Below are positions 1 to 35,922 of a stretch of DNA of 64,000 nt, in pieces; positions within the stretch are counted from its first letter, which is position 1; every line of letters begins with the position of its first letter. The stretch covers positions 325,438,001 to 325,502,000 of the forward strand of contig OZ024742.1 of the NCBI GenBank assembly GCA_964016885.1, written 5' to 3'. Source of the stretch: Eledone cirrhosa. Taxonomy: Eukaryota. Below the pieces are notes generated by a model, which was not told the origin of the DNA, searched no databases, and worked only from the letters and a program-made list of their open reading frames with translations. The position numbers and the translations under genes are program-made.

Positions 1-1851
1 TTGAACGGTTGTGAAAGGTGACCGTTCACTCTCACTACAGAGCAGATGTCGCTGTTCATGGCAGCAATCCAGCGTCTGTAGACGGGCCCAAAGCCAGCCA
101 CCCTCAGGACTGCCGCTAGGTAACGATGGTCGAACCTATCGAAGGCTTTCGACTGATCTAAATTGATCAAGGACCCACCCGTGCCAGGTTCCCTAGCTAC
201 CCTCTCTACGATGTATCGCATGAGGTGGAGGTTGTCGTGGATGGATCTGTCGAGAATGGCGCATGTCTGCGCCTCTCCCACCAAACCATCAACGACAAGT
301 GCCAACCTCTTTGCTAGTACCTTTGCCAAAATCTTGAACTCTGTGTTTAGCAGAGTTATGGGCCTGAAATTATCTATGTTATCCCCCTTGTTCGGATCCT
401 TTCTCAGCAGTGCCGGCGCTCCTCGGCTCACAGAGCTGGGAATTCTCCCGTTCTGTTGCCAGTTGTAGTAGACGTCCGCCAAGAGGCCTCCGAACAAGTA
501 TGGCATCTGTACGTAAAGTTCATAGGGCAGACCATCCAAACCAGGCGAGTTACCCCTTGTGCAGCCAGTCATTGCCTCCCGTATTTCAGCGGCTGTTATC
601 GGCTTTTCGCAACTCCTCGCCTCAGTGGCCGAGAGCCGCGGCAGTCCGTCGAGGTAGACACTAAAGTCCATCCCTCGACCCGGCCCGCCGCTGCCCCCGA
701 ACAGCTGAGCGAAGTGTCGCTGAAAAGCTTCACACATTTGCCCGGGATCGAGTAGCATGCGCCCGTCGTGTTCCACCATAGACCGGATCGTGGCTTTGTT
801 GCCACGACGCACCTCCGCCACTCGGGCCCATTGAACGGCTTTCGTCCCCTCGTGTCTGAGAGCATGCACCCTAGTTCTGACAACGCAGCCTTCATGCTTT
901 GCATTGAAGAATTGGTCAAGGGCCAATTTCGCCGCAAGCACGTCGGTCGCGATGCCTCTGCTAAGCGCCTCGTTCGTCTTATTTTCTAACTAGTTCCCCT
1001 CTGCTCTATTTTTCTCTATTGCTAAAGCCTTACTAAACCTAATGGACTCTATTCTAATCGCTCTTTTCGGAACAAACCACCACTTGTTGTTGACGATGGC
1101 CCCCATCAACGCCCGCTTAACTAGTTCGCTAATCCGGTCTCTGTAGGCCTTGGGCGCTGGTAAGGATGCGTTTAGCTTCCAGTAGCCGAGTCCTCGTCTA
1201 TGAAGCCTATCTAAGTCAAGCACACAGATCACGAATTTGTGGTCCGTGTAGCTGACTATCTTGAATTGTGGACAGCCTATGCTAGACCTATCTATTTCCT
1301 TACAACTCTACTTAGATATGATCTGGATGACCCAATGCGATTTGTCCAAGTCCACAATGGCACATTCGGGAAATCCAATCGGTACCTGCCAGACAGTTCA
1401 AAACGCCTGAGCAGGATGGTGAGGCTCTTGCACCCTCCTCCCCTATCCGTTAATCCCACACAGTCCCAGCGTGCCTCTAAGATCCCGTTCCAGTCGCCCA
1501 CTAACACTAAAGAGCGGGAGTTCCAAGAAAGGTCTCCAGACGCCGGAAGAAATCAGGCCGCCCTGCTCCTGTCGGGGCATAGACGGCCACTAGCCTGAAA
1601 GCTTTCCCGTCTCCTCTGGGTACGTCCAGCACCACCAACTTACCCTCTGGGTCCAGGAAGATGGCCCGTATGGCGAGATCCTCTCCGAAAAAGCACAGCA
1701 ACTCCTCCCTCCCCGATGCTTCGGAGATTCTGGTCTCGCTGATGGCCACTACATCTATGTTTAGTGACCTGAGGTCGTTGAGTAGGTGGCCCTGCTTCCA
1801 TGACGACCCCAAGCCACGCGCATTTATGCTGCCTATTCTGAGTGAGGTCAT
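1..1851 (-). pseudogene. A1 ORF2 (APE endonuclease and start of RT), frameshifted, with a ~60 bp deletion near 1710
   Basis: ORF pieces 1507-1851, 1292-1507 and 990-1232 are colinear with A2 ORF2. Confidence 0.9.
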
Positions 1852-1885
1852 GTTGAAAAGGAGTGGAAAAGATGGGAAAGACCAC

Positions 1886-3794
1886 TTACCTTACTTCTCG
1901 TAGGGGAAGGACGGCTTTTCCATCCTTTTCACTGCTTGTGGCCTCCTCAGGAAGGATGTCCTTATGAATCCTCCTGGAGAGTGCTTGTCGGAAGTCTCCG
2001 ATGTCTTTGGGGAATTTTTGTTTTAGTGTCATGTACGTTTTCTGTGTGATGCGAGTGATTTGTATGTGTGGAGGATGGTGTGAACTTTTGGGTTGTTGTG
2101 TAGTCTTTTTCTGTGATGATGGTGTTGTGTTGCATGTAGTGTAATAATTGGTTGTTCAAATTTAATGATGTGTAGTGTGTATCGTTTTGGTTGTTTTGTT
2201 TTGTTTGCGTTTGTTGTGGGTTTGTTTCTGTTACGCTTTTTGGTGACTTTTGTGGTGTTGGTGATGGTGGTGTTGGGGTTAATGATGGTGACCGTGTTGG
2301 TGTTTGTGGTGATGGAGTTGGTGATGCTGCTGTGGACGGTGGCATATCTGTCTTAACTTTCTTGTTGGCTAATTTATTTGTTTCCCTCTGTATTTTGTTT
2401 TTGGAGGGGGAGGGAAGAGAATTTTTTCTTTTGTGGTTTCTTTTTTTCTTTTTTCCTGATACCGTTTCCCACTCCTCGTCGTCACAATCTGTCTCCAGTT
2501 GCGATAAGCCGGGGAGTAGAAAATCCTCCACAGGCGTTGGTTTTGGTTGTGGCGTGGTTGATGGTGTAGGCGCTGGTGCTAGTTCTGGGGCGCTGGGTGG
2601 GTTGTTGCTGTTACAGTTGCTTCTGTTGTTGCTGCTACAGTTGTTGCTGCCATCTCTGCTGCTGGTGGTGTTGATGGTTGATTCACTGGGGTGGGTAACA
2701 GAGGTGGCCTCAACCTTTTAGCCTGAGTGCAGAAAGCCCTTAGGTGGGTTCCTTCACCACAAACGACACACCTGGGTCATCTGCCCTCGACGATTACGGT
2801 GAGGTGGCTGCCGTCAGTGAGGTCTATTACCTCTGGGATCTCCTCAATGCTTTTATGGTCCGCTTGGATCAGGAGCTCCATCCGAGATCCTGACCAGTTC
2901 TCCTGCTTTTCTTTTGCTATTTCTATTATTTTGGTGTTCGTCTCGATGCCGGCGAGGACGGCAGCCATTAGCCAGGGAATTTCGATGGCCGGTGGAACGT
3001 GGGTCACCCTGATCTTCACAAGTCTCTGGCCACAATAGATTGGGATGAGTGTGAAGTCGTCGCTTCTTAATGGGGCCATGGAGTTTTCTCTGGCCTCCTG
3101 TAGTGTTTCAAAGAACACGTCCACTGTTCCATACTTCTGCCCACGTCTGATGTGGGTTTTTTGCCCACATATGTCCCAAAGCTTTTTGGATTTGGGACTC
3201 AGATTCCCGTTGCACTCGGCGCGATTTTATGGTTATTGTCCGATAAGACACGGTGCATAGGCGACGTTGCTCCATTTTATTAGGTGAGGCTGACCCTGCA
3301 CCCATCTTTCTTTACCATTCCTTTGGCTTCGTCTAATTCTTCCTGAGTTACCTGGATCGCTTCGCACGTTTTTGCTACTCTGGCAAACTCAGGGTAGTTT
3401 TCTTAATTTCATTGCTGCTGTTGTTATTATCGTTATTTTTGCTATTGTTAATTTTAGTTTCAGTTGTGGTGGTGGTGGCGTCAGTGGTGTTCGGTGTGGA
3501 AGTGTTCATTTTGGTTGAATTCATTTCGATATCATGAGTAAATTAATTTTTTTCTTTTGTTTCTGTTGTCGCTGTGGTGGTGGTGGGGATTGTGGTTGTC
3601 GCGGTGGTGGTGGTGGTGGCGGCTTTAACACCTGCAGTCATTGATAATGGCGGGAAATGAACGTCTGCCTGAGACAAATTTAAAATATTGCTACTGCTTA
3701 CAATTCCAGTGTTGGCAAACGTAGCAAAATTTACAATGGTGGTGTCGGTGTGAGGTGTTGGATTGTGAGGAAGGAGTGAATCTGAGTCATCCAT
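1886..3794 (-). pseudogene. A1 ORF1 (gag-like, Thr/Pro-rich), frameshifted
   Basis: ORF pieces 3543-3794, 3108-3305, 2777-3124 and 1962-2531 match A2 ORF1. Confidence 0.85.
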
Positions 3795-4010
3795 TATTTT
3801 TCAAAGAAAAATTTTTTGTTTGATAATTAAAAAAAGTTTAAATTTTGGGCTCAAGGCCCCAATATTTTTGAGTGTGCTTTTCAGAAATCAATATATGTGC
3901 ACTTATATACAGTTAACAATAAAAATTTTCCATAAATGGCAATTTTAAATAACTGAAAATAACAAACCTTTGCGGAGCTCACGATGAAACGATTTACTAC
4001 GTAGGGCGCC

Positions 4011-4046
4011 AATAATAATTATAATAATAATAATAATAATAATAAT
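4011..4046 (+). repeat. (TAA)n junction tract A1|B1
   Basis: Direct reading. Confidence 0.98.
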
Positions 4047-7000
4047 GAAAAACGTAAAGGAAATAAAAATGAAGAGAAAAACAAACGGACGGACAGAGAA
4101 GGGAAGGGAAAACTAAGTCAGACATTCAAACACTACATTACAATGAAACTTATGCTTATTCATTTTGGGGTTTTTTTCTGCCTGTTTGTTTGTTTGTTTA
4201 TTTGGGTTCGTCTACAGCGTGATAATGCCACACAAAAGTCACGTGGAGTGACGAAACCACCGGAGAAAAGTAATTCACCGGATCTTATGTAACCATACAT
4301 TCGCCAATCCTCGATAAGAGTGTTTAAATGTCGAACCTAAACAGTTCGAATAACGGTGAAATGGAGACTAGAATGTCACGTGACAGACTCTCACCCAACA
4401 GGTGCTCCCTGGCTCAGCAGCAGGGACCTGGCTGTCAACCAAATACTGCTGGTGTCGGAGGAAGAAGAAGAAGGAAAGGGACCAGAACCAACTGGACGAA
4501 AGAATTGAATAGAACTGTTATGCAATGTTACCTGAAGAGTAACCCCAAGGAGAAAGGCTATAGGAAAAGGATGCATAACATCTGGAACGAGATTGGTCCA
4601 TTTAAATTAGATGAACAAAAACTGGCCGGGCAGGCTCGGGTAATAAGAACTAATGGGTGGATAAGCGAGCTGGAACTGGAGGAACTGAGCAGAGAGATTA
4701 GCTTGGAGATGGAGTGTGGACTATGCCAGGCAAACGAGCCAGTGGGAAATGAAGGTGAAGAGGTCGAGAGAACGGAGGAACCACCCGAAACAGACAATGA
4801 TCTGAATGCTGAGATAAATAATACCTGGAACAGAGATACGGCCACTGAGGAGATGAATGCTGACGGGCTAGGACAAGATTTGGTAGATATCCTAAACTTA
4901 GTGGTAGATGAATTGAAAAATGATAGTGGGAGACCTATGAACCTAAGATTTGTAGACAGGAAAAAGTTAAAAGAAACAACAGCTAAGGTAAACAAAGTCA
5001 TCCCATACCTTCAGGCGAGGAGCCTTCACCAGTGCAACAATATCCTCAAAGCAACAGCAAATACGGTGAGGAAACTACTTGGTATAAAAACGAGAGGGAA
5101 CAACAGACAAGAAAGAGCAGAGCCTTGGTGGAAGAAACGACTGAGTGGTCAAATCAGGGAAATGAGAAATGACATTGGAAAGCTTGAGTCCCTACTGAAT
5201 GGGACACTAAAATACATAGACACTAAAAATAGACTGGAAATAAAGTACAAAACTAGGAGGAAAAAGGTAAATATTATCATAGAGGAACTGAAGCAACGCA
5301 TTGTAGCAAAGAGTGCAAAAATCAGGCGATAGGAGAACAGGGTCAGCCAGTATAGACAGAACCGCATGTTCGACAACAACCAGAAGATGCTGTTTGGACA
5401 GCTTGAAGGGAAAGAAGAGGCAACGAGTTGATCCCTGAGGCGGAACAAACTAAAACATTCTGGAGAGGAATATGGGAGCAGGATGTTAAACATAATGACC
5501 AGGCAGTGTGGATTGAGACAGTACAGAAGGAGTTCAGTTAACAGGCACACCAACAAACTGATTTGAGTATCACAGTTTGAGTATCACTCTTAAGGGGCAG
5601 GCCAAAAAACTAACCAACTGGAAATCACGTGGCCCAGATGGTGTGCAGGCGTATTGGATTAAAAACATAATTTCCCTCCACAAGAAACTGACAACCATGT
5701 TCAATGACTGCTTGATGTCAGGTGAGGTACCAGAGTGGTTGACAAAAGGTACCACAGTTCTGATAATGAAAGACCGAATCAAGGGTAATGATGTTACCAA
5801 CTATAGACCTATCACATGTCTGTCCGTAATGTGGAAACTGTTGACAAGCATTATGTCTGAGGAAATCTACCATCACCTCCACACAAACAACTTGTTACCG
5901 GACGAAGATAAAGGATGCCGAAAGAAGTCACGTGGTACAAAGGACCAGTTACTTATTAATAAGATGGTAATGAGGAATTGCAAGAGGAGACACACTGGTC
6001 TTGCCATGGGATGGATAGACAACAAAAAGGCATTTGACATGGTGCCTCATTCTTGGATCACCAAAAGCCTGGATATCTTCAAGATGGCAGATAGCATCAG
6101 ACAGTTGTTGGGCAAAAGTATGAAGTCCTGGGAAACAGAGTTAACATCAACTGGAGAATCCTTGGGAAGCGTGAAGATCAAGAGAGCTATCTTCAAGGGA
6201 GATAGTCTGTCCTCTCTGTTGTTTGTCCTTGCCCTGATGCCCCTGACCAGTGTACTGCGAAAAGTGAGAGCAGGATACAGGTTGGGAAAGGGAGGGCTTA
6301 CCATCAATCAACTCCTCTTCATGGACGATCTTAAGCTCTTCGGGAAGAGTGAGAAGGAGTTGGATGTGATGTTGACACTGTCCGTATTTTCAGCAATGAT
6401 ATATGTATGCAATTTGGTATAAGTAAGTGTGGAGGCCTTGTGATGAGGAGGAGTAAGTTGAGCAGAAGTAACGGAATCCAGATACCAACAGGTGAGATGA
6501 TAAAGGAAATTAACTCTAAGGAAGGATACAAGTATTTGGGCGTTCTGGTGGCTGATGACATCAAGAACAAAAAAATGAAGGAATTGATAAGAACTGAATA
6601 CATTCGGAGAGTAAGGAGCGTATTAAAGTCACATCTGAACAGTAGGAATGCCATAAGTGCAGTAAATTCCCGAGCTGTGTCTATTATTAGGTACAGTGTG
6701 GGAATTCTGAGATGGAATGTTGCTGAACAAAAACAAATGGATAGGAAGTCTAGGAAGCTATTGACTATCTACAATATGTTCCACAAGAGGAGTGATGTCG
6801 ATAGACTCTACTTAAGGAGATCTGAAGGTGGAAGAGGTCTAATCAGCATAGAGGACTGTGTTCAGATGGAGAAAAACAACCTACACAAATACGTGACTGA
6901 TAGTAAGGAGCCAATGCTCAGAACTGTACTGAAGGAGGGGACAATAGGCCAGGGGATAGCCCACTGTGCAGGATCTGTGGAGAGAGAGAGAGTAGACTGT

Positions 7001-7620
7001 GGCTCACATTGTATCCGAGTGTAAACACCTAGCCCAGGTTCACGATAAGGGCTGGAGACATGATGTGATGGGCAGGGTGATCCACTGGCACCTATGCAAG
7101 GTAAACAATTTACCACTTTCTGAGAAGTGGTATGAGCATAAGCCAGAGGCGGTGATAGAAAACGATCAGGTGAAGGCGCTGTGGGATTTTAGGATACAGA
7201 CGGAGAAGAAACTGGAACACAATAAACCTGACCTGGTGGTTGTGGACAAAGAAAAAAGATCGTGCCTGATTGTGGGTGTGGCCTTCCCATTCAACACGAG
7301 AGTGCAAGAGAAGGAGAGGGAGAAAATTAACCGATACCAGGACTTAAAGTGGGAGGTAAAAAGGATTTGGAACTGCCATGAAGTCAAAATGATCCCGATT
7401 GTCATAGGCGCACTAGGGACTATCTCAAAAAGTTTCCAGGGATGGTTAAAAAAAATTGGCCCCTTCACGCTTTTTGGAACGCTTCAAAAGGCATGCTTGC
7501 TGGGAACAGCAAGAACCCTCCGATACGTCCTGAATATCTGAGGCTGCAAGTAGTGGCTTGATATTCATTTCAACAAACTTTCCAATTAACTAACATAAAT
7601 GACTGAGACTAAAAAAAAAA
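4047..7620 (+). mobile_element. Family B copy B1: R4/Dong-clade RLE non-LTR retrotransposon, defective
   Basis: Single broken ORF 4328-7541: N-terminal W..ELN..VMQCY..SNP..GYRKRM motif, RT (YRPITCL, KAFDMV, GDSLS, LFMDD), then HIVSEC..WRHD..KPDLVVVD..EKINRYQDL (RLE). Contains stops, frameshifts and a ~215 bp deletion at ~6958. Flanked by (TAA)n. Confidence 0.93.
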
Positions 7621-7622
7621 TA

Positions 7623-7652
<30 letters not shown>
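7621..7652 (+). repeat. (TAA)n junction tract B1|A2 (tail-to-tail)
   Basis: Direct reading. Confidence 0.98.
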
Positions 7653-7653
<1 letters not shown>

Positions 7654-7896
7654 TTTTCTTTATTAACCACAAGGGTTCACATAAAGTAGACATCAAGGAC
7701 AGTACAGGACAATACAGGACGGTACAAATGGGCATTTCTGCGTGTAAAAAAAACAGAGGTTGAAATAAAATAACAAAGAAAAATTCCCCAATAGGGGGGA
7801 GACTTCCAAGGAACATTTGTGGAGAAAGCCCATTAAAAGACCACAGTGGCCCTGACCACCAGGGCAAGTGCCCTCTCCCAGTTTTCCACCTTTAAT

Positions 7897-10800
7897 TTAC
7901 AGACACATACTCAGAGAAGGCCCATTCATTCGGGCCATACTTGCTTCTCTCACCCATCTTTCAACAAAATGCTGAGAAGAGAGCACTTCCCTCTCTACCC
8001 TGATTTTTCTTTTCAAATGAAATTTGAAAAAGTTAATCAGAGCATCACCGAAGAGGTAAGTGCTCGTCTTCAGCCCTTTCAAACGTGTCCACCATACTAT
8101 CTCTTTCGCAATGGCCACCAGACAGATAAAAACTGCCTGCCCTTCCAGGCTAAAGGAAGGGGGCGGGGCAATCCTCACGATGGACTCAGCTGATAGCTGG
8201 ATCCGTCCTACACGTGACAGCAGGTGTTCGACATAAACCCACAAGTCAGCAATGCTCGGACACTGGACGAGTGCGTGCAGGACGGTTTCGTCGCCCTGCG
8301 CGCATCTCGGACATGCCCGGCTGACGGCACCTCCATGCCTGTAGAGTTTATCCCGAACTGGCAAAGCTCCTCGGTAGCACTGCCAGGCCAGGGATTTCTG
8401 GAAGATGTCCATAGGCCCCGGCCCGAAAGTCCTTCCGAAGAGATTGGCTAGTTGATTTTCGTCGACGCCTAGATTTTCTCCAAGTACGTCGTCGCTCTTC
8501 CCCTCCACTAATCCCCTATAGAACGCCAAGGTGGAGTTTCCACCGATCACATTGCCCGATTGGTCGAGGGCTGTGAGCGCCTGAAGACATTCCAGTCTCC
8601 AAGCGCTCCCTCTCGATCTTCGCTTGACCCAGGACTGCAGCTCCGTCAAGGAGACGAGCTGGGGAAAAACGTGTCTTGCAAACGGCGACCACACCTGATC
8701 ACCGTCGAGGAAGAGGTGGAGATGTCGTAGCCTGAGCACGTGTCTGCGCATCATCAGCCACGGCATGCCCAGCCCTCCACGTAGCGGGTGTTGACAGCAG
8801 ATGGACCGCCTGACCATCGGAGCGCGTCCCTTCCACAAGAAGCGAAAGAGCAAACGCTCCAGCGCAGTCAGGCGGGGCTTAGGACAAGGTACGACGGTCA
8901 GGCGGTAGTAGATGACGGATGCGATGTACGCATTCGCCACCTCCGCTCGACCTTTCAGGGATAGCTTCCTCTCGGCCCATTTCTGGGTGAGAGAAGCCAC
9001 CCTGCTCGTCACCTCGTCCCAGTTTTTGTCCGTCTGGAGGTCTGGACCGAACCAGACCCCTAGCAATTTAACCGGTCCGTCCGTCCAGCGCCCGACGACG
9101 CTGTTGGACGGCATGGACCTGCCTCTGCAGGTGCCGAGCTGCAGCCCCACTGACTTTTCCTGGTTGATCATTGCTCCTGTCACCGCTTCGTATTCTCTTA
9201 GTGTAGTGCCGATCGCCTCGATGTGTTTGGCGTTCGACACCACTACGGTGACATCGTCGGCATATGCTGACACGGATCTTCCGCATCCTAGTTCGCGCGG
9301 GACCCCCCTCAACGTCTCCAGTTTGTGCAGTAATGGCTCGAGAGTCAATACGTACAATAGGGACGAGAGGGGACATCCTTGGCGGACCGAGCGCATGATG
9401 TTGAACGGTTCCGAAAGGTGACCGTTCACTCTCACTACAGAGCAGATGTCGCTGTGCATGGCAGCGATCCAGCCTCTGAAGACGGGCCCAAAGCCAGCCG
9501 CCCTCAGGACTGCCGTTAGGTAACGATGGTCGACCCTATCGAAGGCTTTCGACTGATCTAAATTGATCAAAGACCCACCCGTGCCAGGTTCCCTAGCTAC
9601 CCTCTCTACGATGTATCGCATGAGGTGGAGGTTGTCGTGGATGGATCTGTCGGGAATGGCGCATGTCTGTGCCTCTCCCACCAGACCACCAACGACAAGC
9701 GCCAACCTCTTTGCTAGCACCTTGGCCAAAATCTTGAACTCTGTGTTTAGCAGAGTTATGGGCCTAAACTTATCTATGTTATCCCCCTTGTTCGGATCCT
9801 TTCTCAGCAGCGCCACCGCTCCTCGGCTCACAGAGCTGGGAATTCTCCCGTTCTGTTGCCAGTTGCAGTAGACGTCCGCCAAAGGCCTCCGAACAAGTTT
9901 GGCATTTGTACGTAAAGTTCATAGGGCAGACCATCCAAACCATGCGATTTACCCCTTGTGCAACTAGTCATTGCATCCCGTACTTCAGCGGTTGTTATCG
10001 GCTTTCCGCAACACTCCGCCTCAGTGGCCGAAAGCCGCGGCAGTCCGTCGAGGTAGACACTAAAGTCCATCCCTCGATCCGGCCCGCCACTGCCCCCGAA
10101 CAGTTGAGCGAAGTGTCGCTGAAAAGCTTCACACATTTGCCCGGGATCGAGTAGCATGCGCCCGTCGTGGTCCACCAAAGACCGGATCGTGGCTTTGTTG
10201 CCACGACGCGCCTCCGCCACTCGGGCCCATTGAACGGCTTTCGTCCCCTCGTGTCTGAGAGCACGCACCCTAGCTCTGACAACGCAGCCTTCGTGCTTTG
10301 CATTGAAGAATTGGTCAAGGGCCAATTTCGCCGCAAGTACGTCGGTCGCGATGCCTTTGCTAAGCGCCTCATCTAATTTTCTAACTAATTCTCCCTCTGC
10401 TCTATTTTTCTCTATTGCTAAAGTCTTACTAAACCTAATGGACTCTATTCTAATTGCTCTTTTCAGAGCAAACCACCACTTGTTGTTGACGATGGCCCCG
10501 TCAACGCCCGCTTAACTAGTTCGCTAATCCTGTCACTGTAGGCCTTGCGCGCTGGTAAGGACGCGTTTAGCTTCCAGTAGCCGGGTCCTTGTCTATGAAG
10601 CCTATCTAAGTCAAGCACACAGATCACGAATTTGTGGTCCGTGTAGCTGACTATCTTGAATTGTGGACAGCCTATGCTAGACCTATCTATTTCCCTACAA
10701 AATACTCTATCTAGATATGATCTGGATGACCCAATGCGATTTGTCCAAGTCCACATTGGTACATTCGGGAAATCCATTCGGTACCTGTCAGACAGTTCAA

Positions 10801-11313
10801 AACGTCTGAGCAGGTTGGTGAGACTCTTGCACCCTCCTTCCCTATCCACTAATCCCACACAATCCCAGCGTGCCTCTAAGATCCCGTTCCAGTCGCCCAC
10901 TAACACTAAAGAGCGGGAGTTCCAAGAAAGGTCTCCAGACGCCGGAAGAAATCAGGCCGCCCTGCTCCTGTCGGGGCATAGACGGCCACTAACCTGAAAG
11001 CTTGCCCGTCTCCGCTGGTCACGTCCAGCACCACCAACTTACCTTCTGGGTCCAGGAAGATGGCCCGTATGGCAAGATCGAAACCTCTCCGAAAAAGCAC
11101 AGCAACTCCTCCCCCCGATCCCGGACGGCTGGGAGATGCGTACACATCGTAGCCGCCGAAGATCGGTGCGAAAGCCTGTGCTTCGGAGATTCTGGTCTCG
11201 CTGATGGCCACTACATCTATGTTTAGTGACCTGAGGTCGTTGAGCAGGTGGCCCTGCTTCCATGACGACCCCAAGCCACGCGCATTTATGCTGCCTATTC
11301 TGAGTGAGGTCAT
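7897..11313 (-). pseudogene. A2 ORF2: APE endonuclease, reverse transcriptase and CCHC finger; frameshifts near 10906, 10500 and 9880
   Basis: SINARG/ISET/GDWN/YLDR/YTDH (APE); FRPITLLN, DQSKAFD, RQGCPLS, YADD (RT); CPRC-x8-H-x4-C in the 661-aa ORF 7897-9882. Confidence 0.95.
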
Positions 11314-11347
11314 GTTGAAAAGGAGTGGAAAAGATGGGAAAGACCAC

Positions 11348-13331
11348 TTACCTTACTTCTCGTAGGGGAAGGACGGTTTTTCCATCCTTTTCACTGCTTG
11401 TGGCCTCCTCAGGAAGGATGTCCTTATAAATCCTCCTGGAGAGTGCTTGTCGGAAGTCTCCGATGTCTTTGGGGAATTTTTGTTTTAGTGTCATGTACGT
11501 TTTCTGTGTGATGCGAGTGATTTGTATGTGTGGAGGTGGTGTGAATTTTGCGGTTGTTGTGTAGTCTTTTTCTGTGATGCTGGTGTTGTGTTGGATGTAG
11601 TGCAATAATTGCTTGTTGTTCAAATTTAATGCTGTGTAGTGTGTATCGTTTTGGTTGTTTTGTTTTGTTTGCGTTTGTTGTGAGTTTGTTTCTGTTTCGC
11701 ATTTTGGTGACTTTTGTGGTGTAGGTGATGGTGGTGTTGGAGTTAATGATGGTGATGGTGTTGGTGTTTGGGTTGATGGGGTTGGTGATGCTGGTGTGGA
11801 TGGTGGCATATCTGTCCTAACTTTTTTGTTTCTTAGTTTATTTGTTTCCCTCTGTATTTTGTTTTTGGAGGGGGAGGGAAGAGAATTTTTTCTTTTGTGG
11901 TTTCTTTTTTTTTTCTGGATATCGTTTCCCACTCCTCGTCGTCACAATCTGTCTCCAGTTGTGACAGGCCGGGGAGTGGAAAATCCTCCACAGCCGTTAG
12001 TTTTGGTTGTGGTGTGGTGGATGGTGTAGGCGCTGGTGCTAGTTCTGAAGCCTTGGGTGGTGGTGGTGTTGGTTTTGCTGGTGGTGGTAGTGGTGTTGGT
12101 TTTGCTACTGTTGCTGGGGTTGTTGCTGTTATAGTTGCTTCTGTTGTTGCTGCTACAGTTGTTGCTGCCATCTCTGCTACTGGTGGTGTTGATGGTTGTG
12201 TCACTGGGGTGGGTAGGAGAGGTGGCCTCAACCTTTTAGCCTGAGGGCAGAAAGCCCTTAGGTGGGTTCCTTCACCACAAACGACACACCTAGGTCTTCT
12301 GCCCTCGACAATTACCGTGAGGTGGCTGCCGTCAGTGAGGTCTATTACCTCTGGGATCTCCTCAATGCTTTTTTGGTCCGCTTGGATCAGGAGCTCCATC
12401 CCAGATCCGGACCAGTTTTCCTGCTTTTCTTTTGCTATTGTTATTATTTTCGTGTTGGCCTCGATGCCGGCGATGACAGCCGCTATTAGCCAGGGAATTT
12501 CGATGGCCGGTGGAACGTGGGTCACCCTGATCTTTACGAGTCTCTGGCCACAATAGCTTGGGACGAGTGTGAGGTCGTCACTTTTTAATGGGGCCATGGA
12601 CTGTTCTCTAGCCTCCTCTGGTGTTTCAAAGAACACATCCACGGTTCCATACTTTTGCCCACGTCTGATGTGGGTTTTTCTTGCCCACACATGTCCCAAA
12701 GCTTTTTGGATTTGGGACTCGGATGCCCGTTCCACTCGGCGCGATTTTACATTTATTGTTCTATAAGACACGGTGCACAGGCGCCGATGCTCCATTTTAT
12801 TAGGTGGGGGGTGAGGCTGACCCTGTACCCATCTTTCTTTACCATTTGTTTGGCATTTTCTAAATCTTCTTGAGTTACCGTGAACGCTTCGAATTGTTTT
12901 GCTACGATGGCGAAACTGAGGGTCGGTTTTATAATGTCATTGTTGTTGTTGTTGCTATCGTTAATATTAATTTTATTTTCAGTTGTGGTGGTGGTGACGT
13001 CAGTCGTCTTTAGTGGGGAAGAGTCCATTTTGCTTGATTTCATTTCGACGTCACGAGTTAATTTATTTTTTTCTTCTTTTGTTTCTGTTGTCGCGGTGGT
13101 GGTGGTGGTGGTGGTTGTCGCGGTGGTGGTGGTGGTGGAGGGTTTAACACCTGCAGTCATTGGTAATGGCGGGAAATGAATGTCTGCCTGAGACAAATTT
13201 AAAATATTGCTACTGCTTATATTTTTTGTAGTGTTGGCAAACGTAGTAACATTTACAATGGTGGTGTCGGTGTGAGGTGTTATTTTGTGAGGAAGGCTTT
13301 CAGCTGCTTCGTGCAGAGGGGAATTAGCCAT
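11348..13331 (-). pseudogene. A2 ORF1: Tx1-type gag-like protein with zinc knuckle, frameshifted
   Basis: CVVCGEGTHLRAFC fits CX2CX4HX4C. Pieces at 12753-13340, 11833-12795 and 11348-11932. Confidence 0.9.
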
Positions 13332-13538
13332 TTTTTTCAAAGAAATTTTTGGATATAATAAAAGTTAAAATTTTGGGCACAAGGCCCCAATCTTTTTGGG
13401 TGTCCTTTTCGGAAAACAATGTATGTGTGCTTATAAACAGTTTACAATAAAATTTTCCATAAATGGCAATTTTTAAACAAACGGAAATAACAAACCTTTG
13501 CGGAGCTCACGATAATACGATTTCCTACGTAGGTCGCC

Positions 13539-13594
<56 letters not shown>
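13539..13594 (+). repeat. (TAA)n junction tract A2|B2 (head-to-head)
   Basis: Direct reading. Confidence 0.98.
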
Positions 13595-18122: not shown

Positions 18123-18134
18123 AATAACAATAAC

Positions 18135-18186
<52 letters not shown>

Positions 18187-18194
18187 TTAATAAT
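18123..18194 (+). repeat. (TAA)n tract, last one with TAA on the + strand
   Basis: Direct reading. Confidence 0.98.
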
Positions 18195-19090: not shown

Positions 19091-19112
19091 ATTATTTTTA
19101 TTATTATTATTA
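19091..19112 (-). repeat. (TTA)n tract, first one with TAA on the - strand
   Basis: Direct reading. Confidence 0.95.
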
Positions 19113-22100: not shown

Positions 22101-23014
22101 GATCTGATCAATTTCTATATCAGTTAGTAACTTTTTTCGTACAATATTTCTTCGTATATTGGCTAGTTTATTACTGTCAATATAGCCTCTGTTTTAGGGA
22201 TGTTTCTTTTTCCAATTGATATATGTCTGTTCTGTATTCGATGTATTTGATGGGCAGTACATGGCAGTGTAGAAAGCCTCAAGGACTTCTTTATTATCTT
22301 CCCTTGACCATTTTTCTCTCTGTTTCTTTGGATTTCTTGGTGGTGAGCACGGAGAGCCAACAGTAGCAGTATTCCGGTTATGGGAGGTCTCCAGCTCCGA
22401 AGTGATGGGAAGGTTTGAACCATTAGCTGATTTTTCGACCCCAGTCTGGTTCCTCTCTGAGGGACGCGGCCCTTTTTTACCCGGGTGAAGGCCGAACCGG
22501 TATGAGATTTTATCATTAGACATTTACTTTATTTTGTCGCGTTTTATCCTTATCCGCCAAGGGGTAATCATTTCGTGTTACCACTTCTAGAACGAGTGTC
22601 AACCAAGACTAGAGGGGTCGTTCTCCCCTAGAGACACGGCTATTCCCCGCCGGCCGCCATCCCGGTATTTCTTGGTCACGGGGTTTTCTTTTTGTTGCTT
22701 TTTTAAATTGTTATTATCGTGAGTGGTTCCTTAATGTGAGCATTGCGTGGCTTAAGAATGAAATTATTAATAATTGTCTCCACTCCAGGCACAAGGCCAG
22801 CAATCACCCAGTGCATTACAATAATATAATATACTTTTTGCTGAAGTTGCCTGTTATTGTTGTTGGCTATGTCGGTGGTGGTGCCGGGGCTTTTTATATT
22901 GTTGGTGAGGAAGGGGTGAGCCAGCAGTCCCATAGTTGTTGATGTTAGCGTTTGGCCGGTGGAAGGTCGCTAAGTCAATCTATTTATATCTTTTGCTAGC
23001 CTCTCCCTTGTCTA
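19113..23014 (-). mobile_element. Family C copy C1: second R4/Dong-clade family, 5'-complete, RLE domain deleted at ~19238
   Basis: ORF pieces from 22523 down to 19233. The 565-aa piece has QGDSLSP, FYMDD, CRVC..HIISMC and NRHD. The 3'UTR matches C2-C4. Confidence 0.92.
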
Positions 23015-23018
23015 GTGA

Positions 23019-23076
<58 letters not shown>

Positions 23077-23082
23077 GTTATT
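23019..23082 (-). repeat. (TTA)n junction tract
   Basis: Direct reading. Confidence 0.97.
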
Positions 23083-23236
23083 CCTTGAATCTCAGTCATT
23101 GATGTTGCTTAACTGGAAAGTCCGTTGGAATGAATATCAAGCCACTACCTGCAGCCTCATATATTCAGGACGTATCGGAGGGTTCTTGCTGTTCCAAGCA
23201 AGCATGCCTTTTGAAGCGTTCCAAAAAGCGGGAGGG

Positions 23237-23237
<1 letters not shown>
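23083..23237 (-). mobile_element. Family B 5'-truncated 3' fragment (~155 bp)
   Basis: Reverse complement of B2 ~17970-18122 (..LFGTLQKACLLGTARTLRYVLNI* plus 3'UTR). (TTA)n on both sides. Confidence 0.93.
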
Positions 23238-23273
<36 letters not shown>

Positions 23274-23287
23274 CATCATTATTATTA

Positions 23288-25711: not shown

Positions 25712-25737
25712 TATTATTATTATTATTATTATTATTA

Positions 25738-28487: not shown

Positions 28488-28534
<47 letters not shown>

Positions 28535-28548
28535 TTATTATTATTATT

Positions 28549-31500
28549 CTTTGAGTCTCAGTCATTGGTGTTAGTTAACTGGAAAGTTTGTTGAAATGAA
28601 TATCAAGCCACTACCTGCAGCCTCAGATATTCAGGCCATATCGGAGGGTACTTGCTGTTCCCAGCAAGCATACCTTTTGAAGGGTTCCAAAAAGCGGGGC
28701 GCGGCCATGTTTCTTTAACCATCCCTGGAAACTTTTTGAGATAGTACCTAGTGCGCCTATGACAATATAGACCACTTTGTGTTCATGGCAGTTCCAAATC
28801 CTTTTCAGCTCCCACTTTAAGTCCTGGTATTTGGTTAATTTGCTCCCTCTCCATCTCTTGCACTCTCGTGACAAATTGGCAGGCCACATCCACAATCAGG
28901 CACAATCTTTTTTCCTTGTCCAAAACCACGAGGTAAGGTCTATTGTGTTGCAGTTTCTTGTCCATCTGTATCCCAAAATCTCACAGCACCTTCACCTGAT
29001 CGTTTTCTATCACCGACTCTGGCTTATGCTCATACCACTTCTCAGAATGTGGTAAATTGTTTACTTTGAATAGGTGCCAGTGAATCACCCTGCCCATCAT
29101 ATCACGTCTCCAGCCTTTATAGTGAGTCTGGGCTAGGTGTTTACACTCGGATACAATGTGAGCCACAGTTTCCTCTCTCTCTCTCCACAGATCCTGCACA
29201 GTGGGCTAGCCTCCTCCTTGTAAATATGGTGTTTCAACCACTTCGTTTTGAGGACCTGCTCTTGCGCAGCCATTAGCATTCCTTCTGTAGCCTTTTTAAG
29301 GTCTCCTCTTTTCAACCAGTTCCGTGTCTGTGGATCTCTGAATTCAGTTTTCTCAAAGAAGGTACTATGAAGGGATTTTCATGATGGCTGCTCTTTCTCC
29401 TTGTTGTTATTTCCTACTTGGACATCCCCTGGTCTATTGTCCTCTCCTCCAGTACAGTTCTGAGCATTGGCTCCTTACTATCAGTCACGTATTTGTGTAG
29501 GTTGTTTTTTTCCATCTGCTCACAATCCTCTATGCTGATAAGACCTCTTCCCCCTTCAGATCTCCTTAAGTAGTGTCTATCGACATCACTCTTCTTGTGG
29601 AACATGTTGTAGATAGTCAATAGCTTCCTAGACTTCCTATCCATTTCTTTTTGTTCAGCAACATTCCATCTCAGAATTCCCACACTGTACCTAATAATAG
29701 ACACAGCTCGGGAATTTACTGCACTTATGGCATTCCTACTGTTCAGATGTGACTTTAATACGCTCCTTACTCTCCGAATGTATTCAGATCTTATCAATTC
29801 CTTCATTTTTTTCTTCTTGATGTCATCAGCCTCCACAACACCCAAATACTTGTATCCTTCTTCAGTGTCAATATGCTTTATCATCTCACCTGTTGGTACC
29901 TGGATTCCGTTGCTTCTGCTCAATTTACCCCCTCTTCATCACAAGGACACCACACTTACTAATACCAAATTGCATACATACATCATTGCTGAAAATACGG
30001 ACAGTGTCAACAAGCACATCCAACTCCTTCTCACTCTTCCCGAAGAGCTTAAGATCGTCCATGAAGAGGAGTTGATTGATAGTAAGCTCTCCCTTTCCCA
30101 GCTTGTATCCTGCTCTCACTTTTCGCAGTATAATGGTCAGGGGCATCAGGGCAAGGACAAACAACAGAGGGGACAGACTATCTCCCTGGAGGATACCTCT
30201 CTTGATCTTCACGCTTCCCAAGGATTCTCCAGCTGATGTTAACTCTGTTTTCCAGGACTTCTATTTTTAGTGTCTATGTTTTTTAGTGTCCCATTCAGTA
30301 GGGATTCAAGCTTTCCAATGTCATTTCTCATTTCCCTGATTTGACCATTCAGTCGTTTCTTCCACCAAGGTTCTGATCTTTCTTGTTTGTTGTTTCCTCT
30401 CGCTTTTATGCCAAGTAGTTTCCTCACCTCATTTGCTGTTGCTTTGAGGATAGTGTTGCACTGGTGAAGGCTCCTCGCCTCAAGGTATGGGATGACTTTG
30501 TTTAACTTAGCTATTGTTTCTTTTAACGTTTTCCTGTCTACAAATCTTAGGTTCATATCATTGTCCAATTCATCTAACACTAAGTTTAGGATATCAACCA
30601 AATCTTGTCCTAGCCCGTCAGCATTCATCTCCTCAATGGCCGTATCTTTGTTCCAGGTATTATTTATTTCAGCATTCAGATCATTGTCTGCTTCGGATGG
30701 TTCCTCCGTTCTCTCAACCTCTTCATCTTCATTTCCCACTGGCTCGTTTGCCTGGCATACTCCACTCTCAATTTCCAACCTAATCTCTCTGCTCAGTTCC
30801 GCCAGTTCCAGCTCGCTTATCCACCCATTAGTTCTTATTACCCGAGCCTGCCCGGCCAATTTGTGTTCATCTAATTTAAATAGACCAATCTCGTTCCAGA
30901 TGTTATGCATCCGTTTCCTATAGCCTTTCTCCTTGGGTAACATTGCATAACAGTTCTATTCAGTTCTTTCGTCCAGTTGGTTCTGGTCCCTTTCCTTCTT
31001 CTTCTTCCTCCGACACCAACAGTATTTGGTTGACAGCCAGGACCCTGCTGCTGAGCCAGGGAGCATCTGCTGGGTGAGAGTCTGTCACATGACATTCCAG
31101 TCTCCACTTCGCCGTTATTCGGACTGTTTAGGTTCGACATTTAAACACTCTTATCGAGGACTGGTAAATGTATGGTTACATAACCACCGGTGATTTTATC
31201 ACCTCCGGCGATTTTAGTGTGGCACTATGACGCTGTAGACGAACATAAATAAACAAACAAACAAATAGGTAAAAAAAAATCAAAAAGAATAAGCATAAGT
31301 TTCATTGTAATGTAATGTTTGAATGTCTGACTTAGTTTTTTTTTTTTTTTTTCCTTCTCTGCCTGTCTGTTCATTTTTCTTTTCTTTACGTTTTTCGTTG
31401 TTGCTGTGCTGCTTTGACTTTTATTTTTATTTTTTTTTATTTTTTGACTGAGTCATCAAATCTGTCTATTTATATCTTTTGATGCCTTCCTCTTTTAGTG

Positions 31501-31736
31501 TGGACACTACGATGCATGTCTTAGCAGGAGGTAGTGGGAGAGAATAGCGGCGGTAGCGATAATGAGGCAGTGGTGGATATGGTGGTGGTGGTGCTGTGCT
31601 AGTAGTACTTAGCAGGAAGTATTGGGAGAGAATAGCGGCGGTAGCGAAAATGAGGCAGTGGTGGTGGTGATGTGATCGTAGTACTGTAGGTGTTGAAGTT
31701 GAAGTAGAAATAGAAGTTGAGGTAACTTGACTAGAA
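28549..31736 (-). mobile_element. Family B copy B3, internally deleted (~0.9 kb at ~30260)
   Basis: ORF pieces from 31140 down to 28623 are colinear with B1 and B2. The leader resembles B2 14000-14620. Confidence 0.92.
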
Positions 31737-31756
31737 TTTTTATTATTATTTATTAT

Positions 31757-32044
31757 GGCCCGAGTGAATGGGCCTACTCTGAGTATGTGTCTGTAAATTA
31801 AAGGTGGAAAACTCGGAGAAGGCACTTGCCCTGGTGGTCAGGGTCACTGTGGCTTTTTAATGGGCTTTCTGCACGAATGTCCCTCGGAAGGCTCTCTCCT
31901 ATTGGGGAATTTTTTCATTGTTCTATTATTACATCCTCTGTTTCTTGTTTTTTACACGCAGAAATGCCCATTTGTACCGCCCTGTATTGTCCTGTACTGT
32001 CCTTAATGTCTACTTTATGTAAACTCTTGTGGTTAATAAAGAAA

Positions 32045-32046
<2 letters not shown>
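31757..32046 (+). mobile_element. Family A 5'-truncated 3' fragment (~290 bp)
   Basis: Encodes the ORF2 end (ARVNGPTLSMCL*) plus a 3'UTR ending AATAAAGAAATC|(ATT)n. (TTA)n at 31737-31756 and 32047-32101. Confidence 0.93.
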
Positions 32047-32101
<55 letters not shown>

Positions 32102-32103
<2 letters not shown>

Positions 32104-32602
32104 TGCATTTATCTTGCTTTATGTTCATACGAGTTATCACCAAGTCACAACCAGTGACCTCAAGAGACAACAAGGTCCGCCATGTTCAAGAAAGAACATA
32201 CATATTCACACATGCATCCTTAGTGTTTAGACTTGTGATGTACTTATATTGACAGGATCTTCCTTAGTATATGGGCAGTTCCCATTAGTACTATCTTTTG
32301 TATTTCTCCTATACGCGGGTTTCCTGGGATTTGCGATAAGTAGTCGTTAGACCCCTTAGGTATCATTCCCAGAGCGCCTACAACCACTGGTATTGTTTTA
32401 GTTCTCAATTTCCACATTTTTCCAATTTCTATCTGCAGGTCCTTATACTTGCTCAATTTTTAAAATGTTTTTATAGATACATTCTTGTCTATTGGAACAG
32501 ACATATCAATTAGCAGGCATACCCTCCTTTGAAAGTCCTTCAATATTATATCAGGTCTATTTGCATCTATTTTTCGGTCTGTTTGGATGCTAAAGTTCCA
32601 CA
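32102..32602 (-). mobile_element. Family C copy C4, 5'-truncated 3' fragment (RLE and 3'UTR)
   Basis: WNFSIQTDRKIDANRPDII..KYKDL..GALG. Ends in (TTA)n 32603-32624. Confidence 0.93.
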
Positions 32603-32624
32603 TATTATTATTATTATTATTATT

Positions 32625-35600
32625 GGCAACCTACGTAGTAAATCGTATTTTCGTGAGCTCCACAATGGTTTGTTATTTTCAGTTGTTTAAAATTGCCATT
32701 ATTGGAAATTTTTTTATTGTTAACTGTATATAAGTGCACATACATTGTTTTTTGAAAAGGACACTCAAAAAGATAGGAGTCTTGAGCCCAAAATTTAATC
32801 TTTTATAATCATCAAAAAAAAAAAAAATTTCTTTGAAAAATCAAGGCCCACTCACAGCTGAACCCATTAGCTGAGAGCCTTCTTCACAAACTAACACTTC
32901 ACACCGACACCACCATTGTAAATATTACTACGTTTGCCAACACTAAAAATATAAGCAGTACCAATATTTAAAATTTGTCTCAGGCAAACATTCATTTCCC
33001 GCCATTACCATTGACTGCAGGTATTGAAGCCGCCTCCCCGACCACCACCACAGCGACAACAGAAACAAAAGGAAAAATAAAGTATCTCGTGATATCGAAA
33101 CGAATTCAGCCAAAATGAACTCTACCACACCGAACACCACTGACGCCACCACCACCACCACCACAACTGAAAATAAAATTCAAAATAAGAAAAATAACGA
33201 TAACAACAACAGCAACAATGAAATTAAGAAAACAACACTGTCTTCTGCCAGAGTAGCACAAAAGTGCGAAGCATTCCAGGTAACTCAGGAGGAATTAGAA
33301 GAAGCCAAAAAAATGGTAAAGAAAGATGGGTATAGGGTCAGCCTCGCCTTATCGGACGATTAACATAAAATCGCGCCGACTGGAACGGGCATCCGAGTCC
33401 CAAATCCAAAAAGCTTTGGGACATATGTGGGCAAAAAACCCCCCACATCAGACGTGGGCAGAAATATGGAACCGTGTACGTGTTCTTTGAAACACCACAG
33501 GAGGCCAGAGAACACTCCATTGCCCCATTAAGAAGTGACGTCTTCACACTCGTCCCAAGCTATTGTGGCCAGAGGCATCGAAACCAACACCAAGATAATC
33601 GAAATAGCGAAAGAAAAGCAGGAGAACTGGTCCGGATCTCGGATGGAGCTCCTGATCCAAGCGGACCAAAAAAGCATTGAGGAGATCCCAGAGGTAATAG
33701 ACCTCACTGACGGCAGCCACCTCACCGTAATCGTCGAGGGCAGAAGGCCTAGGTGTGTCGTTTGTGGTGAAGGAACCCACCTAAGGGCTTTCTGCCATCA
33801 GGCTAAAAGGTTGAGGCCACATCTCTTACCCACCCCAGTGACTCAACCATCAACACCACCAGCAGCAGAGATGGCAGCAACAACTGTAGCAGCAACTGTA
33901 ACAGCAAAAACCCCGGCAACAGTAGCAAAACCACCACCACCACCACCACCACCCAATGCGCCAGAATTAGCACCATCGCCTACACCATCCACCACACCAC
34001 AACCAAAACCAACGCCTGTGGAGGATTTTCCACTCCCCGGCCTATCACAACTGGAGACAGATTGTGACGACGAGGAGTGGGAAATGGTATCAGGAAAAAA
34101 GAAAAAAAGAAACCAAAAAAGAAAAAATTCTCTTCCCTCCCCTTCCAAAAACAAAATACAGAGGGAAACAAATAAACTATCAAACAAAAAAGTTAGGACA
34201 GATATGCCACCGTCCACACCAGCATCACCAACCCCATCACCACAAACACCAACACCATCACCATCATTAACCCCAATACCACAAAAGTCACCAAAAAGCG
34301 AAACAGAAACAAACCCACAACAAACGCAAACAAAACAAAACAACCAAAACGATACACACTACACAGCATTAAATTTGAACAACAACCAATTATTACACTA
34401 CATCCAACACAACACCAGGATCACAGAAAAAGACTACACAACAACCCAAAAGTTCACACCACCTCCACACATATAAATCACTCGCATCACACAGAAAACG
34501 TACACGACACTAAAACAAAAATTCCCCAAAGACATCGGAGACTTCCGACAATAACTCTCCAGGAGGATTTATAAGGTCATCCTTCCGGAGCGGAGGTGGC
34601 TAACGCGTACATCGCGTCCGTAATCTACTACCCCCTGACCGTCGTACCTTGTCCTAAGCCCCGCCCGACTGCGCTGGAGCGTTTGCTCTTTCGCTTTTTG
34701 TGGAAGGGACGCGCTCCGATGGTCAGGCGGTCCATCTGCTGTCAACACCCGCTACGTGGAGGGCTGGGTATGCCGTGGCTGATGATGCGCAGACACGCAC
34801 TCAGGCTACATCTCCACCTCTTCCTCGAAGGTGATCAGGTGTGGTCGCCGTTTGATAGACACGTTTTTCCCCAGCTCGTCTCCTTGACGGAGCTGCAGTC
34901 CTGGGTCAAGCGAAGACCGAGTGGGAGCGCTTGGAGACTGGAATGTTTTCAGGCGTCACAGCCCTCGACCAATCGGGCTATGTGATCGGTGGAAACTCCA
35001 CCTTGGCGTTCTATAGGGGATTAGTGGAGGGTAAGAGCGACGACGTACTTGGAGAAACTCTAGGCGTCGACGAAAATCAACTAGCCAATCTCTTCGGAAG
35101 GACTTTCGGGCCGGGGCCTATGGACAAGTTCCAGAAATCCCTGGCCTGGCCTGGCAGTGCTACCGGGGTGCTTTGCCAGTTCGGGATAAACTCTACAGGC
35201 ATGGAGGTGCCGTCAGCCGGGCATGTCCGAGATGCGCACAGGGCGACGAAACCGTCCTGCACGCACTCGTCCAGTGTCCGAACATTGCTGACTTGTGGGG
35301 TTTATGTCGAACACCTGCTGTCACGTGTAGGACGGATCCAGCTATCAGCTGAGTCCATCGTGAGGATTGCCCCGCCCTCCTCCTTTAGCCGGGAAGGGCA
35401 GGCAGTTTTTATCTGTCTGGTGGCCATGGCGAAAGAGATAGTATGGTGGACACGTTTGAAAGGGCTGAAGACGAGCACTTACATCTTCGGTGATGGCCTG
35501 ATTAACTTTTTCAAATTTCATTTGAAAAGGAAAATCAGGGTAGAGAGGGAAGTGCTCTCTTCCCAGCATTTTGTTGAAAGATGGGTGAGAGAAGCAAGTA

Positions 35601-35883
35601 TGGCCCGAATGAATGGGCCTTCTCTGAGTATGTGTCTGTAAATTAAAGGTGGAAAACTGGGAGAGGGCACTTGCCCTGGTGGTCAGGGTCACTGTGGTCT
35701 TTTGGTGGGCTTTCTCCACAAATGTCCCTCGGAAGTCTCCCCCCTATTGGGGAATTTTTCTTTGTTATTTTATTACATCCTCTGTTTTTTACACGCAGAA
35801 ATGCCCATTTGTACCGTCCTGTATTGTCCTGTATTGTCCTTAATGTCTACTTTATGTAAACCCTTGTGGTTAATAAAGAAAAC
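32625..35883 (+). mobile_element. Family A copy A4: both ends intact, ~2.45 kb internal deletion (APE and RT) at ~34587
   Basis: 5' end TTATT|GGCAACCTACGTAG. ORF1 with zinc knuckle (33535-34476) is joined to the ORF2 C-terminus (34596-35641). 3' end AATAAAGAAAAC|(ATT)n. Confidence 0.93.
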
Positions 35884-35922
35884 ATTATTATTATTATTAT
35901 TATTAGTATTAGTATTATTATT
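35884..35922 (-). repeat. (TTA)n tract marking the right boundary of the array
   Basis: Direct reading. AT-rich non-array sequence follows. Confidence 0.95.

Follow-up and report, generated by a model that had tools for sequence, protein, structure and literature searches.

A stretch of 64,000 nucleotides of the Eledone cirrhosa genome (assembly GCA_964016885.1, contig OZ024742.1, positions 325,438,001 to 325,502,000 of the forward strand; hereafter the window) carries, at positions 1-35922, a series of long interspersed nuclear elements (LINEs) of three families joined end to end through (TAA)n or (TTA)n microsatellite tracts. Family A has an apurinic/apyrimidinic-like endonuclease (APE) and families B and C a restriction-like endonuclease (RLE), and the question raised by the locus is how elements of two endonuclease classes came to share one repeat in fixed and opposite orientations, and why the polarity of the whole array turns over at a central segment, the hinge. 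The reading that we hold to be probable is that the 12 LINEs, of the Tx1 clade and of the RLE type, fill the oppositely oriented (TAA)n tracts in the inverted arms of an older element, itself likely of the Penelope type, strand-specific nicking and the addition of repeat being likely at each step.

The array and its strand rule

Self-BLAST, together with mapping of the families against single-copy references, divides positions 1-35922 among 12 LINE pieces (A, B and C are each represented four times), between which lie 13 (TAA)n/(TTA)n tracts of 22-72 bp each, as had been described in an earlier note made from the letters of the window. All 12 copies follow one strand rule, A being sense to the TTA strand and B and C sense to the TAA strand, which bears out the fixed and opposite orientations of the APE and RLE families claimed there. 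On the plus strand, the tracts read TAA to the left of position 18195 and TTA to the right of position 19090. Four of the 13 tracts (at 4011, 13539, 31734 and 32603) are head-to-head, i.e. they separate two 5' ends, and therefore no 3' tail accounts for them.

Neither (TA)5+ nor (CA/TG)5+ runs are present in 1-35922, and the sole match resembling a short interspersed nuclear element (SINE) is a 45-bp piece within the 5' untranslated region (UTR) of a C copy, as against 11 SINE matches in 38.7-63.3 kb, in agreement with the earlier statement that no SINE or (TA)n lies between the elements. The array is longer than first given; the actual span is 37,715 bp with 14 tracts, starting 1.8 kb to the left of the window, and the enclosing element measures 38,080 bp.

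Junctions across the genome

First-look counts gave 1862, 1367 and 848 candidate 5' ends for A, B and C, respectively. Loci were sampled as best-similarity matches, a choice biased to young copies, and the tally covers 167 of 190 loci, 23 having been dropped as duplicates or for overlap with the window or its flank. The repeat was found on the expected strand at 291 of 315 junctions, 22 had no tract, two had tracts on both strands, and none had a tract on the opposite strand alone. By family, the expected strand was found at 100 of 108 junctions for A, with (TTA)n in the sense direction, and at 119 of 131 and 72 of 76 for B and C, with TAA. These counts, together with those of the window, support the proposal of an antiparallel community of APE and RLE elements on an interstitial microsatellite.

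Upstream of the 5' end, the repeat lay on the expected strand at 30/30 loci for A, at 29/30 for B (the exception being a rearranged copy) and at 30/30 for C, with an intervening GAA run in five of the latter and with two places that repeat earlier loci. A tract was present at 139 of 157 5' junctions; the repeat is therefore a target and not only a tail. Mixed arrays of approximately 12-40 kb were found in 6/6 extended regions, several of which had been chosen since matches clustered there. Among young full-length copies (L240-L279), a neighbouring LINE is commoner on the side that faces the TAA strand's 3' end than on the opposite one (by eye, in a biased sample: 5' side of A, 19/20; 3' side of B, 17/20).

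The Penelope-like host element

Rather than a neutral spacer, the hinge is the middle part of a fourth element, of Penelope-like type, which bounds the array with its outer arms: parts of these arms lie exactly at the two array ends, one at 35923-36188 and the other 1.8 kb left of the window, both on (TA)n. The two arms are alike at 93/99 and 121/131 bases, i.e. 6-8% apart, and outside the tract they are unequal in length (99 versus 266 bp). The hinge family is abundant (1787 candidates), and its intact copies consist of (TA)n, a short arm, about 30 bp of (TAA)n, the body, inverted (TAA)n, a longer arm and (TA)n again, with an inversion point that varies among copies. A TA-rich run ends 28 of 29 other long arms, and likewise lies at both ends at this locus. 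Here, the array of 37.7 kb occupies the short (TAA)n in each inverted arm, and its polarity flips at the hinge because the arms are inverted relative to each other. The arms account for both the hinge and the polarity flip, which the earlier note had left unexplained.

The assignment to the Penelope type is likely on the basis of motifs, structure and one language-model match. Longer copies of the family carry a YRDD reverse transcriptase (RT) motif and a C-terminal IVY...YIG domain, and the first protein-atlas match of the family protein is a GIY-YIG cluster (language-model score, 0.95). The single-sequence fold of the Penelope-like endonuclease reached a pLDDT (predicted local distance difference test) of only 36. 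For a hammerhead ribozyme in the pLTR, Rfam at its gathering score gave no match across window 1-40000, and no weaker search was run. A miniature inverted-repeat or other DNA transposon with terminal inverted repeats was considered for the hinge and ruled out by the unequal arms, the variable inversion point and the RT/GIY-YIG-like remnant.

Divergence from the nearest relative fetched is 3.9-4.5% for the hinge element and 0.2-4.4% for the LINE copies of the array, and no order is seen along the arms, which fits a piecemeal filling of an older element; directional growth of the array was ruled out, the ages of the copies being unordered along either arm. A second Penelope-like copy holds an 11-kb A-A-C array of the same polarity, and single insertions are found in four others (L075, L077, L216 and L218); in L216 the inserted sequence is a single B fragment, 5' of which lie 69 bp of repeat.

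Flips of array polarity in which no Penelope element is involved were observed at palindromic (TAA)n(TTA)n junctions, at G000:C1 near 301,221,350 (L195), and at L189 and L267. Beside the Penelope-like copies of L127 (about 4500-8700) and L125 lie other LINE families, presumably a further RLE element reminiscent of HERO/NeSL and pieces resembling RTE/CR1.

Family A, a Tx1-clade element

An intact A copy (L249) encodes an ORF1 (open reading frame 1) and an ORF2 of 1152 residues with Exo_endo_phos (E 1e-13), RVT_1 and zf-RVT domains according to Pfam; the best PDB matches of this ORF2 are L1 endonucleases, and a CCHC knuckle is found in the ORF1 of the family. In the RT tree, a quick IQ-TREE search of 50 rows without Kibi and Koshi, A and Xenopus Tx1 ORF2 (P0382) share a 34-row clade with a Shimodaira-Hasegawa-like approximate likelihood ratio test (SH-aLRT) value of 97, apart from which fall the L1 rows, i.e. 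amphibian and plant proteins taken as L1-like. Within this tree, A belongs to a 12-row group with an Argonauta protein, separate from the group of Xenopus Tx1, and among named proteins the nearest to it comes from Argonauta hians (68% identity). By the RT tree and the two-ORF APE architecture, family A is assigned to the Tx1 clade, the label originally proposed. The 1152-residue frame is open in eight of 20 fetched copies.

The target of A, (TTA)n, is not that of the Kibi/Koshi lineage, (TC)n or (TTC)n; (TTC)n was next to or near A in only two of 59 loci (L024 and L060). The 3' junction of A is without poly(A). No Rfam match to a ribozyme was obtained at the 5' ends of A and B, and a stable hairpin at these ends is unsupported (folding z, 0.63 and 0.75).

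Each of the three families includes subfamilies, and the genome has additional 5' modules of the A type. The second element of this type, A', has an ORF2 region about 95% common with A and a different 2.2-kb 5' UTR/ORF1 (G000:C1 near 301,235,980, L197; also L205, L250, L256 and L285-L289), while in a third, A'' (L047, L077 and L288), ORF1 is 38% identical and the repeat is also found upstream. Besides that of A, two A-type 5' modules follow (TTA)n, one of them in 15/15 hits, some in overlapping loci. The pattern of A, A' and A'' suggests swapping of 5' modules with the target kept.

Families B and C, RLE elements

An intact B copy (L264) has a single ORF of 1141 residues with RT, CCHC and RLE, the C-terminus of which aligns to the R2 RLE (E 0.001); the best PDB matches of the B RT are likewise R2. 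The same motifs (RT, CCHC, PD..D..K) are found in C in broken frames. The two families share 40% of their protein residues and 73% of the first approximately 350 bases (window 13595-13960 against the C 5' end, L009), and B and C start with the same bases; a shared promoter or recombination are possible origins of the common 5' UTR. The 3' end of B consists of element-encoded AATAAC/AACAAT repeats. The 1141-residue frame is open in seven of 20 fetched copies. Given open frames in copies of A and of B, both families may therefore still be active. Many B copies (L095-L124) have positions 159-487 of the 5' UTR, about 330 bp, duplicated in tandem, which marks a young subfamily.

A Myb-like N-terminal region without zinc fingers is a feature of R4/Dong elements. 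The N-terminus of B gave no zinc-finger family in Pfam, and its language-model match to Myb scored only 0.85, a lead. With a single ORF, an RLE and a TAA target, B and C would work like Dong; the Dong/R4 label is kept here on architecture and target, and no named R4 or Dong protein was among the relatives returned for the two families.

Proposed course of events

Divergence would place first the entry of the Penelope-like element, of the structure described above, into (TA)n with an inverted 5' arm, leading to two opposed (TAA)n tracts of about 30 bp. In the second step, the APE of A would nick the TAA strand at the T-A step, so that A is always sense to TTA, as its observed orientation and register suggest, whereas the RLE of B and C would nick the TTA strand, leaving them sense to TAA as reported for the Dong target. 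Insertions would then split the tracts, which nevertheless still measure 22-72 bp, so that the target is renewed as a net outcome; the added repeat probably stems from duplications of the target by multiples of three, from 3' tails that resemble the repeat and from stuttering during synthesis at the junction. The polarity flip at the hinge simply corresponds to the inversion between the two arms.

Several points weigh against this scheme. Its cleavage and insertion steps are deduced from sequence. Pfam, NCBIfam and PDB gave no match of substance for the Penelope-like proteins, and polarity also flips without a Penelope element, e.g. at a (TAA)5(TTA)7 between two B tails (C1:301.22 Mb). The 22 junctions without a tract, and the bias to young copies in all of the junction samples, also count against it. 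Furthermore, empty arms reach 69 bp without insertion (L128 and L221), and part of the growth is therefore due to slippage combined with preferential use of long tracts.

Renewal of the repeat

The arms of the Penelope-like copies provide the comparison required for evaluating repeat gain. Empty arms hold 15-33 bp of repeat in 17 of 18 cases and 69 bp in one, and in 16 further empty arms the median is 30 bp (range, 24-69 bp). At this locus, the arms hold 236 bp in five tracts and 365 bp in nine tracts, i.e. a gain of about 52 and 42 bp per insertion, respectively. Tract medians are 32 and 45 bp on the two sides of full-length A copies, and 63 (5') and 46 bp for full-length B copies, 12 of 20 of which were chosen for non-element 5' flanks, while over 65.8 kb of flanking DNA of the full-length copies no repeat is longer than 18 bp. 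Comparison with the empty arms shows that the landing pad is renewed on balance, as claimed in the earlier note; the part of the claim that we infer is the making of repeat by the insertion reaction itself. At the 5' junctions of full-length B and C copies, as read from the junction list, pure (GAA)3-14 runs are present in 6/55, and partial duplicates of the first bases of the element, beginning GGGAAGAAG, in 9/55. The GAA stutters suggest repeat synthesis during insertion.

Runs of (GAA)n, up to dozens of units, were observed between (TAA)n and element ends (L291, L294, L298, L300, L309, L124 and L136; L060 and L024), where a second microsatellite may be arising as elements insert. A SINE that is abundant (10 matches in window 38685-52288, and many loci elsewhere) and about 180 bp in length has ATT repeats at its end. 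Its last bases match the A 3' end at 15 of 20 positions (top 1% of background), and it enters Penelope arms in the polarity of A but in most cases lies elsewhere; apparent duplications, judged by eye, measure about 15-23 bp. The SINE is a possible partner of an A-type element and source of new tracts; with a TTA run at 16 of 44 of its 5' ends, a strict microsatellite-targeting partnership with A is not established.

A broader scheme, which we advance only tentatively and consider to have somewhat less than an even chance, would see a three-tier, self-feeding community based on three endonuclease classes unrelated to one another. Penelope elements with a GIY-YIG endonuclease (and ATT-tailed SINEs) would sow the pads, APE Tx1 and RLE Dong-like elements would use opposite strands of them, and the RT of the RLE elements would stutter in a telomerase-like way at the 5' junction, writing new repeat. 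If so, every insertion would enlarge the target, and in octopod genomes would seed both the long arrays and the hotspots of repeats.

Alternatively, targeting and polarity are real, insertion makes no repeat, and replication slippage lengthens the tracts, long ones being hit more often. Such an explanation is rather unlikely. In its favour, arms of 69 bp were found in one of each of the two sets of empty arms (1/18 and 1/16), and the long 5' tracts of full-length B copies fit a preference for long targets. However, all 14 tracts of the array are about as long as the original 30 bp or longer, while most empty arms stayed near 30 bp, and copies that match the reference piece at 95-99% have up to 14 GAA units at their 5' junctions, where the element end contains only two.

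Origin of the polarity

Two features of the junctions bear on what sets the orientation. All full-length A 5' ends (35/35) meet the repeat as ATT|G, a single register, and at most 3' ends the junction is C|ATT, which is consistent with cutting of both strands at the T-A step. In addition, 5'-truncated copies abut the repeat in 70 of 86 cases. Neither is predicted by 3' pairing alone, and both thus speak against an explanation that we regard as unlikely, in which polarity is due to RNA-DNA pairing rather than to the endonuclease, RNAs ending in (AUU)n or (UAA)n being able to prime only where a loosely nicked repeat offers the complementary strand. Swaps of endonucleases also altered the target of TRAS1/SART1 (PMC7265360). 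On the other hand, the repeats encoded at the B 3' end, the A 3' junction without poly(A), and the ATT-tailed SINE, which has the polarity of A and yet is often outside microsatellites, would all be accommodated by RNA pairing, and annealing of repeat-like RNA has been proposed for SART1 (PMC7265360).

That the repeats are only 3' tails in which the elements pile up passively is largely refuted and very improbable: 62 of the 139 tract-bearing 5' junctions do lie behind the 3' end of a same-strand element, but the other 77 cannot be the 3' tail of a neighbour (35 face a 5' end, 41 other DNA and one is unclassed), the four tracts of the window named above are head-to-head, and the Penelope arm tract predates the LINEs. 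Finally, an assembly artefact or local tandem duplication is barely conceivable, because same-family copies are 3-15% apart and of different ages, each truncated or deleted in its own way, the array is closed at either end by matching outer arms, and the same junction types recur at many loci, with similar arrays in all six extended regions and in the second Penelope-like copy; short contigs and restriction-site-associated DNA (RAD) reads bridged no junctions, giving neither support nor refutation, one contig covering the unique right flank. We thus return to strand-specific insertion into the arms of a Penelope-like element as the probable origin of the array.

Order of the copies along the array

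To the left of the window, beyond the 3' end of A1, lie a (TAA)14 tract and then the Penelope-like short outer arm (L061:8109-8250). A1 itself (1-4010, minus strand) is 5'-intact, its 3' end being 1.75 kb left of the window, and a head-to-head (TAA)n tract (4011-4046, plus) separates it from B1 (4047-7622, plus), which is 5'-truncated with a small internal deletion. Through a tail-to-tail tract (7623-7652, plus) follows A2 (7653-13538, minus), a full-length 5.9-kb Tx1-clade copy, young but frameshifted, with the CCHC knuckle in ORF1 and APE, RT and zinc finger in ORF2, and then, across a head-to-head tract (13539-13594, plus), B2 (13595-18122, plus), a full-length 4.5-kb RLE copy (RT, CCHC, PD..D..K) and the youngest of all. 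The tract at 18123-18194 (plus) is the inner part of the short-arm repeat and retains an ancestral ATT interruption. The hinge (18195-19090, minus) comprises a putative C-terminal GIY-YIG-type remnant and the 3' UTR of the Penelope-like element, with the inverted arm copy at 18945-19090.

On the right side, the inner part of the long-arm repeat (19091-19112, minus) is followed by C1 (19113-23018, minus), which is truncated within its 5' UTR; 22871-23018 was considered as a separate insertion and ruled out, as it belongs to this 5' UTR. A tract between the C1 5' end and the B3 3' end (23019-23082, minus) leads to B3 (23083-23237, minus), a 155-bp 3' fragment, and another between the B3 5' end and the C2 3' end (23238-23287, minus) to C2 (23288-25711, minus), with an internal deletion. 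Next come a tract (25712-25737, minus), the 5'-truncated C3 (25738-28487, minus), a tract (28488-28548, minus) and B4 (28549-31733, minus), a 5'-truncated copy of an older B subfamily with an internal deletion. A decayed head-to-head (TTA)n tract (31734-31757, plus) separates B4 from A3 (31758-32046, plus), a 289-bp 3' fragment, which is joined tail-to-tail (32047-32103, plus) to C4 (32104-32602, minus), a 499-bp 3' fragment. After a last head-to-head tract (32603-32624, plus), A4 (32625-35883, plus) has both ends and a 2.5-kb internal deletion. The outer part of the long-arm repeat (35884-35922, plus), the long outer arm (35923-36188, minus), in which the 93/99 match to the short outer arm lies, and a (TA)n flank (36189-36209), the insertion site of the Penelope-like element, complete the locus.

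Outside the array, 37600-38183 is a 3' fragment of another RLE retrotransposon, presumably CRE-like by its motifs, which ends on (TG)n and is thus a further microsatellite-linked element. A small palindromic (TTA)3(TAA)4 repeat with no LINE attached lies at 39809-39827.

Implications

These data add (TTA)n as a target of the Tx1 clade and indicate that APE and RLE elements use one repeat from opposite strands. The pair offers a natural setting in which to test convergent recognition of a target as well as the choice of strand during target-primed reverse transcription, and copies with open frames are available for assays. Since the Penelope arms are matched empty and filled sites in one genome, the creation of targeted microsatellites by retrotransposons, an idea debated for a long time, becomes measurable. 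A possible mechanism is also offered for transposable element hotspots and for the richness of octopod genomes in AAT repeats. Repeat annotation calls for caution, as such arrays split Penelope elements by tens of kilobases.

Relation to known systems

Dong-R4, L1-Tx1 and Penelope families have recently been active in Octopus vulgaris (PMC13282606), the main text of which, the supplement left aside, contains neither the word 'target' nor 'nested'. In the literature, Repbase not being covered, no published (TTA)n-targeted Tx1 family or mixed Tx1/Dong array was found. Dong elements (Bombyx mori Dong, DongAg and DongBg, of the R4 clade) target TAA (PMC3812793), and B and C resemble them as RLE retrotransposons without long terminal repeats (non-LTR) on TAA microsatellites with a single ORF containing RT, CCHC and PD..D..K; unlike Dong, two RLE families here share their target with an APE element, in mixed arrays of 10-40 kb. 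Among Tx1 elements, Kibi targets (TC)n, Koshi (TTC)n, and crocodilian families (TTCC)n/(TTTC)n (PMC4494074). A is likewise a Tx1-clade APE element on a microsatellite but, unlike Kibi and Koshi, its target is (TTA/ATT)n.

TRAS1 and SART1 belong to the R1 clade. In Bombyx mori, they use (TTAGG)n in opposite directions, TRAS1 nicking at a T-A step (PMC7265360), so that two elements on one repeat in opposite directions are common to both systems; there, both are APE elements on a telomeric repeat, whereas here an APE and an RLE type meet on an interstitial microsatellite. Insertion of a Tx1 element into another mobile element is also known, from Xenopus Tx1L in Tx1D and from crocodilian Tx1 families in DNA transposons (PMC4494074). 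In contrast to Tx1L/Tx1D, the target here is a simple repeat that happens to be in the host element, and most copies are outside it.

The host element, in turn, resembles the C-terminal endonuclease-containing (EN+) Penelope-like elements (Neptune, Penelope/Poseidon and Hydra), whose layout is given in PMC8557442, in the inverted 5'-truncated copy that forms the arms, the extension at one end, the insertion into (TA)n and, putatively, the order of RT and then GIY-YIG-type domain. It differs from them in the length of the one-sided extension, about 170 bp rather than 30-40 bp (PMC8557442), and in that the (TAA)n of its arms is the target of other retrotransposons. The elements of this locus are of known kinds; what is new is a Tx1-clade target, (TTA)n, that is common to two endonuclease classes and comes with a built-in empty-site control.

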